In this document: piece after piece, positions 8,783 to 59,054 of the stretch
How positions within the stretch are numbered: position 1 is the first letter of the stretch
Layout of the letters: every line of letters starts with the position of its first letter
Assembly: GCA_951406725.2 (NCBI GenBank)
Contig: OX597814.1
Coordinates: forward strand, 221,464,001 to 221,528,000
From: Octopus vulgaris
Taxonomy: Eukaryota
Direction: 5' to 3'
DNA length: 64,000 nucleotides
Notes under the pieces: model-generated
What the model was told of the DNA's origin: nothing
Seen by the model: the letters and a program-made list of their open reading frames with translations, nothing else
Databases searched by the model: none
Program-made: the position numbers and the translations under genes

Positions 8783-9044
8783 CGCGGAAATGTACTTGCA
8801 TAGCAAGTGACCTGCTCTGAGATCTCGTGCTGAAGCAAAAACAATTGCAGCGTGGAAGGTGTTTATAAACCATTTAAAACCACACAGAAACCGTTATTTT
8901 GCCAGCACGGAATTTTGTCAGTGATCAATCAATTCACGGTTTCAAAGCGACGAAAATATTTCGGCAAAATAAATTTAAATATTGAAGTGAATCTAACGGT
9001 TTTTGTGTGTTTTTAAAGGCTTATGAACAGCATCCACTCAGTAA
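8783..9044. mobile_element. Fold-back non-autonomous element with G3:C8-variant hammerhead candidate
   Basis: 8852-8896 is inverted relative to 8994-9037; same family at 10770-10953; flanked by TA-rich tracts. Confidence 0.7.
8912..8970 (+). ncRNA. Candidate minimal type I hammerhead ribozyme, G3:C8 variant (degenerate copy)
   Basis: ATTTTGTCA-GTGATCA-..GCGAC-GAA-AATATT-T-CGGCAAAAT: stem I, core GUGAUCA, GAAA, palindromic stem III AATATT; stem II is damaged in this copy. Confidence 0.45.
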
Positions 9045-9322
9045 TATATATATATATATATATATATATATATATATATATATATATATATATAATAGAA
9101 ATATTAAAATAACTAAGTCTCTCTAAAAGAGAACAGCGGCAGCGTTCCCGGAAAATAATAGTTATCGCCATACTAATATGGCATTCTTATAAAAATAAGA
9201 AAAAAGCTGTCCGCTTATTAGCTCCATGAGGCCATCGCCTTAAGTTAGCTATTTGATACACAAACTGTATCCATATAACCTTCGAACAAGGGAGGTCAGT
9301 CGCTCCACATACTTGACCGGCA

Positions 9323-9364
9323 GCTACAGACGCGTTTCGGAGTATTGCCCCTTTTCAATGCAGC
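9323..9364 (-). ncRNA. Minimal type I hammerhead ribozyme, U3:A8 variant (copy 1)
   Basis: Exact reverse complement of 9557-9598. Confidence 0.8.
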
Positions 9365-9556
9365 GTAGCCAGCCAGTAGGTGTCGCTTCCGACAATCTCT
9401 GTTCGATGGTTTTATTTACCTAGTTTCGGTGGAATACATCCACTTGTTTTCAATAATAGAAATATTAAAATAACTAAGTGGATGTATTCCACCGAAACTA
9501 GGTAAATAAAACCATCGAACAGAGATTGTCGGAAGCGACACCTACTGGCTGGCTAC

Positions 9557-9598
9557 GCTGCATTGAAAAGGGGCAATACTCCGAAACGCGTCTGTAGC
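9557..9598 (+). ncRNA. Minimal type I hammerhead ribozyme, U3:A8 variant (copy 2); predicted cleavage after C9592
   Basis: GCTGCA-TTGAAAA-GGGG caata CTCC-GAA-ACGCGT-C-TGTAGC: stem I GCTGCA/TGTAGC, stem II GGGG/CTCC, palindromic stem III ACGCGT, GUC triplet; stem I extends via TGGCTGGC/GCCGGTCA. Confidence 0.82.
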
Positions 9599-9917
9599 TG
9601 CCGGTCAAGTAGTGTGGAGCGACTGACCTCCTTGTTCGAAGGTTATATGGATACAGTTTGTGTATCAAATAGCTAACTTAAGGCGATGGCCTCATGGAGC
9701 TAATAAGCGGACAGCTTTTTTCTTATTTTTATAAGAATGCCATATTAGTATGGCGATAACTATTATTTTCCGGGAACGCTGCCGCTGTTCTCTGTTAGAG
9801 AGACTTAGTTATTTTAATATTTCTATTATTGAAAACAAGTGGATGTATTCCACCGAAACTAGGTAAATAAAACCATCGAACAGAGATTGTCGGAAGCGAC
9901 ACCTACTGGCTGGCTAC

Positions 9918-55339: not shown

Positions 55340-55535
55340 CTGGCGTAAGCACGAGGCCAGATTTTTGAGACAGCGGAGTAGTTGATAATATCAATTCCAG
55401 TATTAGACGCTACTTTATTTTATTAACTTCAAAAGGGTGAAAGGCAATATTAACCTTAGGAGGATTTGAACGCAAGATGTAGTGAGCTGGAACAAATATC
55501 GCAAAGCAGTCTAACCGACACGCTGACCGATAATT
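55340..55535 (-). mobile_element. SINE family B, highly diverged
   Basis: TACTTTATTTTATT..AAAGGGTGAAAGGCAA..GGATTTGAACGCAAGA. Confidence 0.55.
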
Positions 55536-57808
55536 CTATATTACATCTCTCTCACTCTGTCTATCTATCTATCTATCTATCTATCTATCTATCTATCTAT
55601 CTATCTATCTATCTATCTATCTATCTATCTATCTATCTGTCTGTCTGTCTGTCTTTCTGTCAGTCTATTTATCTATTTATCTATCTATCATTCTATCTAT
55701 ACTGTACTATCATGTTACTGATCTGGATATATATCCATTCGTTAAAGATAGATCGATATGACCGAATAAAATTCTCGAATTGTCTGACACAGTATAGTCA
55801 CAGACAAAAGACTGACACCAGTAGAAAACCAGTAGTACATATACACACACACGCACATATATGTTTGTGTGTGTGTATATATATATATATATATATATAT
55901 ATATATATATACATGTATATATATATATGCAATTATGTATGCATATACAGAAGCATACGCCTGTGTATATGTATGTATGTATATATATATAATTAAATGA
56001 TATACGTTAGGTATGTTTCGTATGCTTACAGCATCAAGTTATAGAAATATTGATAAAGTTTACAGCTTATATAGTTTCACATCAAAACGATCAAATTTCT
56101 TTAAAAAGAAACACGAAGATAAACGAAATGAATCACAATAATAAATAAATATATAAATAAATAATAACTTAAAAGAAACAAAACACAAAACAAAATAGGA
56201 AATTGTAAAAACATGAATGAAAGTAATAGAAACGGTTCCTTGAAATGGTAAAAATAAAATGAAATTAAACATAGAAAGGAACAATGTAAATAGAATAATA
56301 AAGATTATATTTTATGGGAAAGATATTTTATTACTTGTGTAATATAAACTAAGTTCAGTTTTAAAAAAGAGACAAGGCATACATGATAACCGAGTGGAAT
56401 TCTCTTTTTCGGGAGATACAATATTGTCTCGAATTCCTCAAACAAAGCAATAACGCAATCTTCTTTGTATCGATACCTATTTGTCTGCTATTATGTTATG
56501 TCTCCCTGTCTGTGTGTCTCACTTTCTCTCCCACGTTCTCTGTACACACACACACTACAAACACACGTGCATATATATACACATACATACATATGTATGT
56601 ATGTAGAGGCATATGTTTAAGTTATGTGTATTGTTGTTCATAGAATACTTTATGGATGAGGGATGGTGTATGCAGGAAGTTATTGATACATATTGATCTG
56701 TACGTATGCATATATAAATGGTAGTTATACACGGTATATGTGCAAACCGTCGCAGATATAAATATGCATCTACATATATTTATCTATATTACGTACACAT
56801 TTACACAAATCTGCTAGGATATATGTATGTCTATATGTATGTATCTGTCTATTCACACACATACATATGTATGTGCATATATGCGTATATATATATATAT
56901 ATGTACACGAATAAGTATGTGTGTGTATGGTATATATATATATTATATGTATAATATATACATACATGTTTATATAGATGTATATCTATATTTTATATAT
57001 GTACACATACACGCAAAAAGTGCACAAAGGAACATTCATAGAACCACACAAGCATGTATTTATGTATGCATCAAAATATGTATATATATATACACACGCA
57101 AATATTGATTAACTGAATTGATATATATGCGCCTGTGTGTGTGTGTGTGTGTGTGTGTGTGTGTGTTCAGTGTGCGCTGGTGTTTGTATACACGCATATC
57201 CTCTGAATTAAAGACATTAAAATTTTAACGTAATAATAAATATATATTTTGTCGAACTATACATATTTATGAAATGTTGAGATTTATAAATTATGGTCCT
57301 CGAAATATTTAAAATCCGATCTACTATCCCCCATTACAACCCACACAAGCACGCACCCACGCGCATTCACCCCCCCCCCACATACATAGTATAATATGCA
57401 TATTAGACGTCAGAGTTATCTGTGTCCATTGCCATAGTGAAAGACGGACATATTAAAACAGTAAAATCTGAGGAAACTAGAGATGTACTTTGAAGACAGT
57501 AAGTATTGCAAATACTTGGAACTGTGTTACAAATACCAAACCTTCAAGAAGTGAAGTCTAGCGAACCTTACCTGTGCTAGAGCAGGAATGTTCTCAAGAT
57601 TTGTGTCAGCAACTAATTATGAGAGTCAGTCGAAGCAAGTGATGGTAAAAAAGAAAAGGAACGAAGATATCAAGCACTGGTGGAGGCATGGAGTAACCGT
57701 TGAAGCTTAGAAAACGTAAAAGGATCACCATGTGATTTGAATATTTTGGAGGATAGTGAGAGAGATGCACAACTGAGAAACTTAGTACAGACACAGTCTA
57801 CACGTTCA

Positions 57809-58679
57809 TAAGTTGTCTGATCAATAAGTATCCGTACAGTTGCTATATAGTAAGGAAGCTAAAACACGGAGCATGAATCCGCTTAGCACAGATTGACATT
57901 AAATGCTGCTACGCATGCGCACTAAGATTCACCGTTCTAGCTCCCTGCCACTGTTTACAGCAGTGCTTCGAAGGAAGGTGTGTAGCGTGTGATCGTCGCA
58001 TTGACCATGCCAGAGAAAGTTGAACAGAGAATCTACATCAAATTTTACCAAAAGCTTCGTTTTACCAGATTTTACCAAAATAGGCCAAAGCTAATTTTTC
58101 AAAAAGATCTTGTGCAACTGAAATTCGAGTGTCTTTTTGGTCAGCTGAAATCAGTTTGGGCTCAAACTTGGCAGACACGCGACTCATACCCCAAATCTTC
58201 TGTGATAATGAACTGAACTGGACCGTAACTAATCTGCACATCCTCTGAGAACTCACCGATGGTGATTCGACGATTTCCCCTCACAGCTGCATGCACATCG
58301 GCGATGTTTCTCTCACTTCTAATGGTTGCAGGTCTCCCAGAACGTTCGTCAATATCGGCTTTTTTTTCGGCCATATTGGAAACGTCTGAACCGCACATAC
58401 ACTTATGTGCAGCTCATATACTCCTCTTCATATACTTTCTGCAATCAGAGTAGGCCTCTGAGCAAATATAGCCATCACAGCTTTCTCTGTTATGGTCAAT
58501 GCGACGATCACACGCTACATACCTTCCTTCGAAACACTGCTGTAAACAACGGAAGTGAGCTAGAATGTTAAAACTTAGCACCCATACACGAGGTCTATCT
58601 GTGCAGAATGGATTTACTTTGCGTGGTTTAGCCTCGTTACTATGACAACAGCTCAGATACTTAATGATCAGACCTCGTA
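57809..58679. mobile_element. Mariner-derived element built from two inverted 5' ends
   Basis: GTCTGATCAATAAGTATC / GATACTTAATGATCAGACCTCGTA termini; 57925-58020 inverted to 58480-58565; minus strand encodes DDERSGRP..NRRITI..ITEDLGMSRVSAKFEPKL. Confidence 0.8.
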
Positions 58680-58847
58680 TACGTACATTGATACATTCAT
58701 AAATATATATACATATATATTTGAGTAGTTGAATGAATTATCTTGTTATGGATAATTCGGTTAACCGATATCTGGGTAGCAAATTCACACCAGAGAAGAC
58801 ACGTTTGAAGTTACGTGCTTTCGTGTGGAAATTTGTATGTTTTTTTT

Positions 58848-59054
58848 TATATAAATATATGAAAGAATGGAGTTGAACGACGAATTAACAAAATTCCTTT
58901 ATTTTCGACATATGTTTTGAAGGCTGCATATTCCTAATTGCGAAGGAATAATATTCCTTCGCAATTAGGAATATGCAGCCTTCGAAACATATGTCGAAAA
59001 TAAAGGAATTTTGTTAATTCGTCGTTCAACTCCATTCTTTCATATATTTATATA
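58848..59054. repeat. Near-perfect palindrome: 103-bp arms, 1-nt centre, one mismatch
   Basis: Centre GAAGGAATA-A-TATTCCTTC at 58951; arms pair out to TATATAAATATATG / CATATATTTATATA. Confidence 0.95.

Follow-up and report, generated by a model that had tools for sequence, protein, structure and literature searches.

Endonuclease-bearing Penelope-like elements (EN+ PLEs) are the closest described systems to the loci reported here. In the accessible parts of two accounts (PMC3846280; PMC8557442, Fig. 2) the units of Penelope/Poseidon, Neptune, Hydra and Naiad carry an inverted 5'-truncated copy set head-to-head, a tail at one end, a short target duplication, a microsatellite bias and a hammerhead in the terminal repeat; the bias is toward (TA)n (PMC8557442) and the duplications measure 8-10 bp (PMC3846280). 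The fold-back layout is therefore already published for these elements and our finding chiefly corrects annotation. The octopus loci share all of these traits and differ from the units in the accessible parts in that both arms are often reduced to terminal-repeat sequence. In vitro, purified PLE protein of Anolis Poseidon, a predicted dimer, cuts and extends both strands of an AT-rich target and starts at two internal RNA sites that bound the tail (PMC11167929). The tail lies at the ORF start, as it does in our copies L186 and L333. Unlike in the octopus, the same start sites were used on both strands, and inverted pairs were outside that study (PMC11167929). Opposite-strand hammerhead pairs 100-700 bp apart with a U3:A8 core are also in print (PMC4209133, accessible part), and the octopus motifs resemble those metazoan PLE minimal hammerheads in the palindromic helix III, the U3:A8 variant and the opposite-strand pairs of truncated PLEs.

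We analysed a window of 64,000 nucleotides of Octopus vulgaris DNA (contig OX597814.1, positions 221,464,001 to 221,528,000) in which a preliminary description had reported six short fold-back elements. We put the probability at roughly 85% that every locus represents two shortened Penelope-type 3' ends joined head-to-head, likely produced in one insertion by the PLE reverse transcriptase (RT) and endonuclease. The preliminary description had the six loci as inverted pairs without shared sequence, and this was borne out: self-BLAST recovered an inverted pair at 6/6 loci (E from 1.7e-7 at locus 1 to 0 at locus 2) and the six family ends had no similarity to each other at E<0.05. Family references built from genome copies were mapped onto the window and placed the left arm on the minus strand and the right arm on the plus strand at 6/6 loci, confirming that the 3' ends always point outward. 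At each locus one arm stopped at an outer site with a tail (28-208 nt) and its partner stopped at an inner site.

At locus 1 the left arm (8785-8896, minus; reference -115 to -3) reached the outer site with a 57-nt tail and the right arm (8903-9045, plus) ended at the inner site and carried a damaged hammerhead with a G3:C8 core at 8921. A solo copy of the same family with its tail lies at 10771-10952 (minus). Locus 2 consisted of 1.07 monomers of the family 2 retrozyme on the left (9092-9479, minus, outer end, intact U3:A8 core at 9358) and 1.8 monomers of about 362 nt on the right (9476-10131, plus, inner end, intact cores at 9563 and 9924), the arms sharing a 4-nt overlap at the junction. 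The left arm of locus 3 (22260-22709, minus) was a complete family 3 short unit made of a tRNA-like head (22630-22709, minus), an expanded trinucleotide linker, a hammerhead and a 28-31-nt tail, and the right arm (22711-22841, plus) ended at the inner site with a hammerhead core at 22756. At locus 4 the left arm (23818-23959, minus) had the inner end and the 3' half of a degenerate hammerhead, and the right arm (23965-24278, plus) had the outer end with a tail of about 205 nt. Locus 5 had its outer end and a 43-nt tail on the left (43340-43445, minus) and its inner end and a minimal hammerhead, core at 43605, on the right (43576-43729, plus); between the arms lay 130 nt of filler (43446-43575), of which 66 nt matched window 41750-41815 in inverted orientation at 97% identity. 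At locus 6 the left arm (58718-58951, minus, outer end) and the right arm (58952-59053, plus, inner end) both kept the hammerhead 3' half. The start given previously, 58848, is wrong; the left arm has a 134-nt tail that was overlooked and the locus begins at 58718.

A hammerhead had been claimed for five of the six loci. Judged against family consensus, hammerhead sequence was present in 6/6 loci, yet only locus 2 was intact: scanning the window with a strict type I descriptor gave 3 motifs, each inside locus 2 and each with the U3:A8 core, where Markov shuffles gave an expectation of 0.05-0.1. A relaxed descriptor passed the consensus of families 1, 2, 5 and 6; those of families 3 and 4 failed it, and their hammerheads were read by eye. 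The G3:C8 core of family 1 is absent from the accessible part of the published account of PLE hammerheads (PMC4209133). Among the 150 best of 209 Rfam matches to the window there was no hammerhead family and there were only sub-threshold microRNA matches. The predicted hammerhead is a passenger of the terminal repeat and marks neither insertion end.

Genome copies were collected as the best-scoring 30 per family, a non-random sample in which 77/148 copies of families 1, 3, 4, 5 and 6 had an upstream inverted arm, one had a tail-to-tail neighbour, and 71/148, about half, were solo. Among 58 classifiable fold-backs of these families, with 19 more excluded because one end fell at neither site, 57 paired an outer with an inner end, 1 paired outer with outer and none inner with inner. 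The pairing was significant (Fisher p=1e-10) once family 4 had been dropped, its query having dictated an outer end. Family 2 was counted against a reference whose first 15 bases were junction-derived, and with it 17/20 distinct insertions were fold-backs, 15/15 fold-backs had outer/inner pairing (14 by pattern), and the inner ends had no clear clustering at the ribozyme cut, several lying 37-46 nt downstream. Junction overlaps, measured against the true monomer, were 2-7 nt in 14/17 family 2 fold-backs. Overall 72/73 classifiable fold-backs had one tailed and one tail-less arm, making the rule of one tail per insertion near-absolute here, compared to "often" or "optionally" in the accessible parts of the published accounts, and the tails of five octopus families were 43-208 nt as compared to 30-40 bp (PMC3846280; PMC8557442). 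The breakpoints between the arms differed in every copy.

Inverted arms and target duplications would also be expected if the families were DNA transposons bounded by terminal inverted repeats (TIRs), either MITEs or of the fold-back type, and local inverted pairs do include genuine TIR-type elements (57815-58673 of the window). However, the ends differ by a fixed tail, the inner breakpoints vary copy by copy, solo arms make up about half of the copies and arms run on into RT genes. This reading is refuted by the RT parents, the solo copies and the asymmetry of the ends; we assign it hardly any probability, and the finding of MITEs that the preliminary description had named as its refutation did not materialise.

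Outside TA runs, 19/22 fold-backs were flanked by target duplications with about 8-13 bases in agreement, using a score of at least 8 as the criterion, a cut-off reached by 2.6% of 114 mismatched flank pairs used as control. TA adjoined 35/57 fold-backs. The preliminary description had most loci abutting TA runs; locus 3 had no TA contact, and the preference was family-specific: family 6 had TA at 12/13 insertions and families 1 and 3 mostly avoided (TA)n. (TA)n is fragile and hairpin-prone, and this counts for the idea that the palindromes arose after insertion by hairpin repair in TA runs or are long-read assembly artefacts, as do the 99% identical arms of locus 2. We consider this idea very improbable, as the arms of old families diverge by 6-15%, target duplications surround the entire pair at non-TA sites and repair gives no reason to expect one tail per insertion.

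Families 3, 5 and 6 are the 3' ends or terminal repeats of coding PLEs. Their sequences ran collinearly into RT/GIY-YIG coding sequence, and in each the repeat was linked to a single ORF with an RT plus a C-terminal GIY-YIG, the Pfam matches of the parent ORFs being weak or absent and family 5 being assigned by motif only (a GIY-YIG-like ORF in 4 loci). The family 3 parent ORF matched RVT_1 at E 1.2e-5 and L333 is a near-complete copy of this parent. The family 6 parent had a GIY-YIG ORF (Pfam E 3e-4) between repeats, with the outer end continuing into the next ORF, and RW and DKT motifs were seen in L049/L186. Hydra elements are described with a canonical hammerhead, DKT and RWK-like motifs and a (TA)n target (PMC8557442, section 11), and this parent is a candidate member of that clade; all clade labels here are motif-based. 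Long coding copies bore the same inverted arm as the stubs. As families 3, 5 and 6 are coding-PLE terminal repeats, many fold-backs are merely heavily 5'-truncated insertions. For families 2 and 4 no coding parent was found in 15, 10 and 21 longer loci in a non-exhaustive search. A GIY-YIG ORF located 1 kb upstream in L155/L187 was considered as a family 1 parent and rejected because family 1 lay within 1.5 kb downstream in only 1/30 best ORF copies; family 1 was near this type of ORF in 0/10 longer stretches. PLE remnants had been reported at four places in the window. The one at 61444-63147 (minus) was confirmed as a decayed ORF from a further family, spanning its RT and GIY-YIG region, with 56-59% identity to a 665-aa ORF that itself had weak RVT_1 and GIY_YIG_2 matches. 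A weak remnant resembling the family 6 parent ORF was found at 49728-49922 (plus, E 2e-4), the 23.3 kb remnant was marginal (E 0.025), and the one at 19.7 kb was not confirmed, with 0 matches.

Family 2 is a non-LTR retrozyme with tandem 362-nt monomers. It had a period of 362, arrays of several units, no ORF, and intact hammerheads in consecutive units (9563, 9924), which fits the description of non-LTR retrozymes as monomers of 170-400 nt with a hammerhead in consecutive units. Like metazoan retrozymes, family 2 is built of non-coding units in tandem, here about 362 nt long, every unit bearing a type I hammerhead; such retrozymes were proposed to be PLE-derived and PLE-mobilised (PMC7229834; 10.64898/2026.07.22.740005, accessible parts). 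Family 2 adds to these accounts, as far as those parts go, a direct PLE footprint: its (TA)n target, its inverted arm and its 3' ends, which are fixed at two sites. Among the sequencing runs listed there was no RNA run for family 2, and comparison with one U2 upstream region gave no common promoter-like stretch.

Short forms of families 1 and 3 are probably non-autonomous RNAs as well. A fixed 5' start was observed in 25/30 family 1 copies and 11/30 family 3 copies; in family 3 these 11 sense arms started within 12 nt at the head and 3 extended beyond it. There were 0 T4 runs in 290 nt of family 3 compared to 1-4 in other families. The tRNA-like head had A- and B-box-like motifs by eye, and ARAGORN called 0 tRNA genes in 15 loci. 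This head is part of the parent PLE terminal repeat, directly after the stop codon, and was found downstream of 21/30 best ORF copies, together with the hammerhead body in 16/30. Schistosoma hammerhead SINE-like elements also have a polymerase III-type head followed by a hammerhead (PMC6765202), whereas the family 3 head lies inside a coding-PLE terminal repeat after the stop codon, and family 3 copies insert with a PLE footprint and are non-tandem.

It could be argued that all six families are ribozyme RNAs independent of one another, non-autonomous circles of the retrozyme type that only borrow PLE enzymes. In favour of this are family 2, whose ORF-less tandem arrays (about 362 nt) hold intact hammerheads, and the single 5' starts seen in families 1 and 3. 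Against it, RT/GIY-YIG coding sequence is collinear with families 3, 5 and 6, the same inverted arm occurs on long coding copies, and families 1, 3, 4, 5 and 6 showed no tandem monomers; we regard this explanation as unlikely. The community of non-autonomous RNAs proposed in the preliminary description stands for family 2, probably also for families 1 and 3 in their short forms, and not for families 3, 5 and 6 with their coding parents. Its other proposal, that PLE machinery was responsible, has good support from the polarity, the one-sided tail, the target duplications and the coding parents. Together the loci are mostly ordinary genomic debris and not a novel class of mobile RNA.

We propose that the enzyme would nick the two strands of an AT-rich site at positions about 10 bases from each other and that each freed 3' end would prime its own cDNA on the element RNA. 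One cDNA would begin at the inner and the other at the outer start site, the two sites bounding the tail, both would halt early and be joined at their growing ends by a few matching bases or filler, and repair would leave the target duplication. Some copies would be templated by the complete element RNA, and retrozyme 2 and the short forms of 1 and 3 likely by a short non-coding RNA. Alternatively, one cDNA could fold back or self-prime on an antisense template, as has been proposed for PLEs (PMC3846280), and the endonuclease could then trim the tail off one end. This would give exactly one tail per insertion and short junction overlaps, Craig et al. attribute the tail to endonuclease resolution, and same-insertion arms shared variants in 3/5 families, resembling each other more than arms from separate insertions did in families 4, 6 and 1 (p 0.0005, 0.001 and 0.025) and not significantly so in families 3 and 5 (p 0.29 and 0.16). 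However, a copy cannot outreach its template 5', and the tail-less arm reached farther in 30/57 fold-backs (tailed arm in 14, equal in 13), a count biased by the tendency of the query-covered arm to be long. In L122 the tail-less arm measured 804 nt and the tailed arm 88 nt. The tail-less arm is therefore not a copy of the tailed cDNA, and in vitro both sites are starts of reverse transcription (PMC11167929). We regard this route as improbable; a variant with an antisense or multimeric template may apply. The one-tail rule and the arm lengths favour two separately primed cDNAs.

The small additions to the known layout are the one-tail-per-insertion rule, the arm lengths and the family 3 tRNA-like head in the parent terminal repeat. 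The rule bears on how inverted PLE units form and, with the arm lengths excluding simple self-copying, makes a sharp prediction for the in vitro PLE system. We give about even chances to the joint proposal that PLE insertion is obligately double-primed with different start sites at each target end and that family 3 is a Penelope-born SINE. If true, the terminal repeat has captured a tRNA-derived promoter that drives short RNAs, these are copied by the parent enzyme, and family 3 is a Penelope-driven, not LINE-driven, SINE whose parent still has the head. A coding PLE with such a head would be a traceable PLE-to-SINE route. A literature search, with most subscription journals outside its scope, returned no paper on a Penelope-mobilised SINE, on twin priming in Penelope elements or on a Tx1 target in a hammerhead repeat. 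For annotation, PLE stubs are easily misfiled as MITEs, SINEs or microRNA hairpins.

Density was assessed in an unbiased sample of 600 kb evenly spaced through the genome. It contained 68 local inverted pairs, or 1 per 8.8 kb (the earlier figure was about one fold-back per 10 kb), but the signature of TA plus a one-sided tail was found in only 20/68. The six families overlapped 3/68 pairs, and 35/68 had no TA nearby. Hammerhead half-motifs pointed outward in 10/13 informative fold-backs of the sample, a weak test (p=0.09), and the full descriptor, also a weak test, gave 2 outward and 2 inward. The sample held 15 family copies, of which 4 were head-to-head and 0 tail-to-tail. Among the local inverted pairs of the window itself, the one at 57815-58673 is a true TIR-type element.

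Each of the six loci was treated as one repeat family, numbered 1-6 by window order, with genome copies drawn from the same 2.8-Gb assembly, whose largest contig carries the window. The best 30 genome matches were fetched per family, with 40 scored each from 213 to 3235 first-look candidates, and 60 evenly spaced 10-kb stretches of genome served as an unbiased sample. All six loci (8783-9044, 9093-10130, 22260-22843, 23819-24275, 43339-43729 and 58718-59054) were inverted pairs, as the preliminary description had it, the left arm always lying on the minus strand and the right on the plus strand, with both 3' ends pointing outward, and comparison of the families confirmed that the six elements are mutually unrelated. 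The earlier limits of locus 6 were too short, the true start being 58718, and locus 3 does not lie in TA. With a strict hammerhead descriptor allowing any 3:8 pair, the whole window yielded three motifs (about 0.1 expected by chance); each lies in locus 2 and has a U3:A8 core. A relaxed descriptor accepted the consensus of families 1 (G3:C8), 2, 5 and 6 and did not accept that of families 3 and 4, whose motifs were read by eye. In 19 aligned copies of family 1, core position 7 was variable and positions 3 and 8 were fixed.

Every family had two alternative 3' end sites, an outer one with an extra 3' tail and an inner one without it, the tails measuring about 57, 58, 28, 205, 43 and 134 nt in families 1-6 respectively. 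Families 1, 3, 4, 5 and 6 together gave 148 distinct copies, and 77 of them had an inverted arm upstream. After dropping 19 of these fold-backs with one end at neither site, the 58 classifiable ones comprised 57 outer/inner, one outer/outer and no inner/inner pair. Outer/inner pairing gave p=1e-10 with family 4 set aside, as its query forced the outer end. Family 2 formed fold-backs in 17 of 20 distinct insertions; both ends were visible in 15 of these, every one outer/inner (14 by pattern). The rule was kept by all six window loci, and a tail-to-tail neighbour was seen once, in genome stretch L051.

The inverted pairs are best explained by double priming, in which each target strand would be extended separately, with starts at the two sites bounding the tail. 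The main rival explanation is that self-priming on an antisense template makes the inversion (PMC3846280, in excerpt). In 30/57 fold-backs the tail-less arm extended over 10 nt beyond the tailed arm in the 5' direction, and in 14 the reverse held, a count biased by sampling; in any one case where the tail-less arm is longer, it was not copied from the tailed cDNA. Junction overlaps of 2-7 nt were present in 14/17 family 2 fold-backs. In vitro, a PLE protein extends both strands starting at two sites that bound the tail (PMC11167929, in excerpt), and this result, together with the arm lengths and junctions, favours double priming. Arms within one insertion were closer than arms across insertions in 3/5 families. 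The arms of locus 5 were separated by a 130-nt filler, and half of this filler matched, at 97% and in inverted orientation, a segment lying 1.7 kb away. Fold-backs L012 and L016, family 2 copies from separate contigs, had an identical 7-nt junction with swapped ends and different lengths, indicating that this junction recurs.

In 19 of 22 non-TA fold-backs a target duplication surrounded the entire pair, versus 2.6% of 114 mismatched flank pairs. The proposed TA enrichment held for family 2, whose insertions were nearly always in TA, and for families 4 (TA runs beside 12/15 fold-backs), 5 (7/7) and 6 (12/13), but not for families 1 (3/11) and 3 (1/11), where TA runs were seldom adjacent. Much of this agrees with published descriptions, seen in excerpt, of a truncated copy in inverted orientation, a tail at one end and a preference for (TA)n in PLEs (PMC8557442), of activity in trans at terminal repeats together with duplications of 8-10 bp (PMC3846280), of hammerheads paired on opposite strands as well as the U3:A8 core (PMC4209133), and of retrozymes as PLE derivatives (PMC7229834; 10.64898/2026.07.22.740005). 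Our literature search found no account of a Penelope-mobilised SINE or of twin priming in PLEs. We conclude that the six fold-backs are real, explained and mostly known, the additions being a useful quantitative end rule and one family linking PLEs to a SINE-like repeat.

That family is family 3, which leads into an RT and GIY-YIG-like frame; its parent is presumably Poseidon-like, judging by motifs. Among the best 30 copies of the parent frame, the tRNA-like head came next in 21 and head plus hammerhead body in 16. L333 is a nearly complete parent copy, and long coding copies bear the same inverted arm. Sense arms started at the head in 11/30 cases and extended past it in 3, and in the unbiased sample the head lay beside its own body in 4/5 stretches. 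The 290-nt unit has no T4 run, whereas the other families do, and ARAGORN called no tRNA in 15 loci. We infer from sequence that polymerase III may make a short family 3 RNA. In family 1, 25/30 copies started no more than 9 nt from one position, at which the query also started; a candidate ORF was rejected as its parent, with family 1 downstream of only 1/30 ORF copies. Family 5 leads into a GIY-YIG-like frame in four loci. Family 6 copies L184 and L186 have RT-like and GIY-YIG frames between repeats, with the outer end continuing into the ORF that follows, and by motif comparison alone the parent's RW and DKT motifs agree with the Hydra clade description (PMC8557442 section 11, in excerpt). 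The suggested match of termini to PLEs was obtained for families 3, 5 and 6, which run into PLE-type frames, but not for families 1, 2 and 4; no parent of family 2 or 4 was found in the longer loci examined. Candidate sources for an in vitro system are two young PLE families in which numerous frames are open: L257-L295 (776-847 aa; the 3' region is long and rich in microsatellites) and L352-L359 (about 750-1200 aa). Some of their copies form large head-to-head pairs.

Family 2 repeats in tandem with a 362-nt unit, shows 97-100% identity across chromosomes and is a retrozyme by the criterion of Li et al. (in excerpt). A two-ORF LINE (zinc knuckle; endonuclease, RT, zf-RVT) occupied one family 2 site, 45-70 nt upstream of the ribozyme cut (L360:1591-6936; L192:1001-6352; L362-L381). 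We take this LINE to be Tx1-like. Two full copies had about 25 family 2 target bases on each side, the best 20 of 30 copies of the 3' end all ran on into the target, and copies were stacked head to tail on contig C2. Family 2 does not follow older relatives (L382-L391; 84-97%), one of which (L389:1799-1962) borders a U1 snRNA gene (Rfam) at the gene's start and another of which has a U2 gene nearby. A stem II variant at monomer position 101, between LINE and ribozyme cut, occurred in 17/17 units directly after the LINE (L362-L381) versus 18/54 elsewhere, as though transcripts of the LINE had continued to the cut and overwritten the target. In the L364 fold-back one arm was 5'-truncated LINE plus family 2 and the other family 2 alone, which suggests PLE-type copying through the LINE.

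The unbiased sample held 68 local inverted pairs in 46 clusters, or one per 8.8 kb, so the earlier figure of one per 10 kb stands for all inverted pairs but not as a count of PLE-type pairs, which make up at least 30%. TA lay within 25 nt of 30/68 pairs (background 3.5%), and in 20/68 TA bordered one side, with a spacer of 26-260 nt separating the opposite side from TA (background 1.2%). The six families contributed 15 copies, with 4 head-to-head and none tail-to-tail. Fold-backs of unknown families, oriented by motif, were outward in 10 cases and inward in 3 (p=0.09; a weak test). Two more retrozyme-like fold-backs occurred in the sample (L196:2104-3639 and L219:8160-8599), one with a C3:G8 core in four tandem units and the other related to family 2 but diverged, with U3:A8 retained. 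Within the window, two further weak inverted pairs of unknown family lay at 17147-17332 and 41223-41473, and a nested inverted cluster (8372-10940) placed loci 1 and 2 between opposed common short repeats (8372-8761 and 10197-10588). A 369-residue open frame at 13648-14757 was read by eye as a LINE-type reverse transcriptase. The element at 57815-58673 has terminal inverted repeats of 208 bp around a long interior and is probably a non-autonomous DNA transposon.
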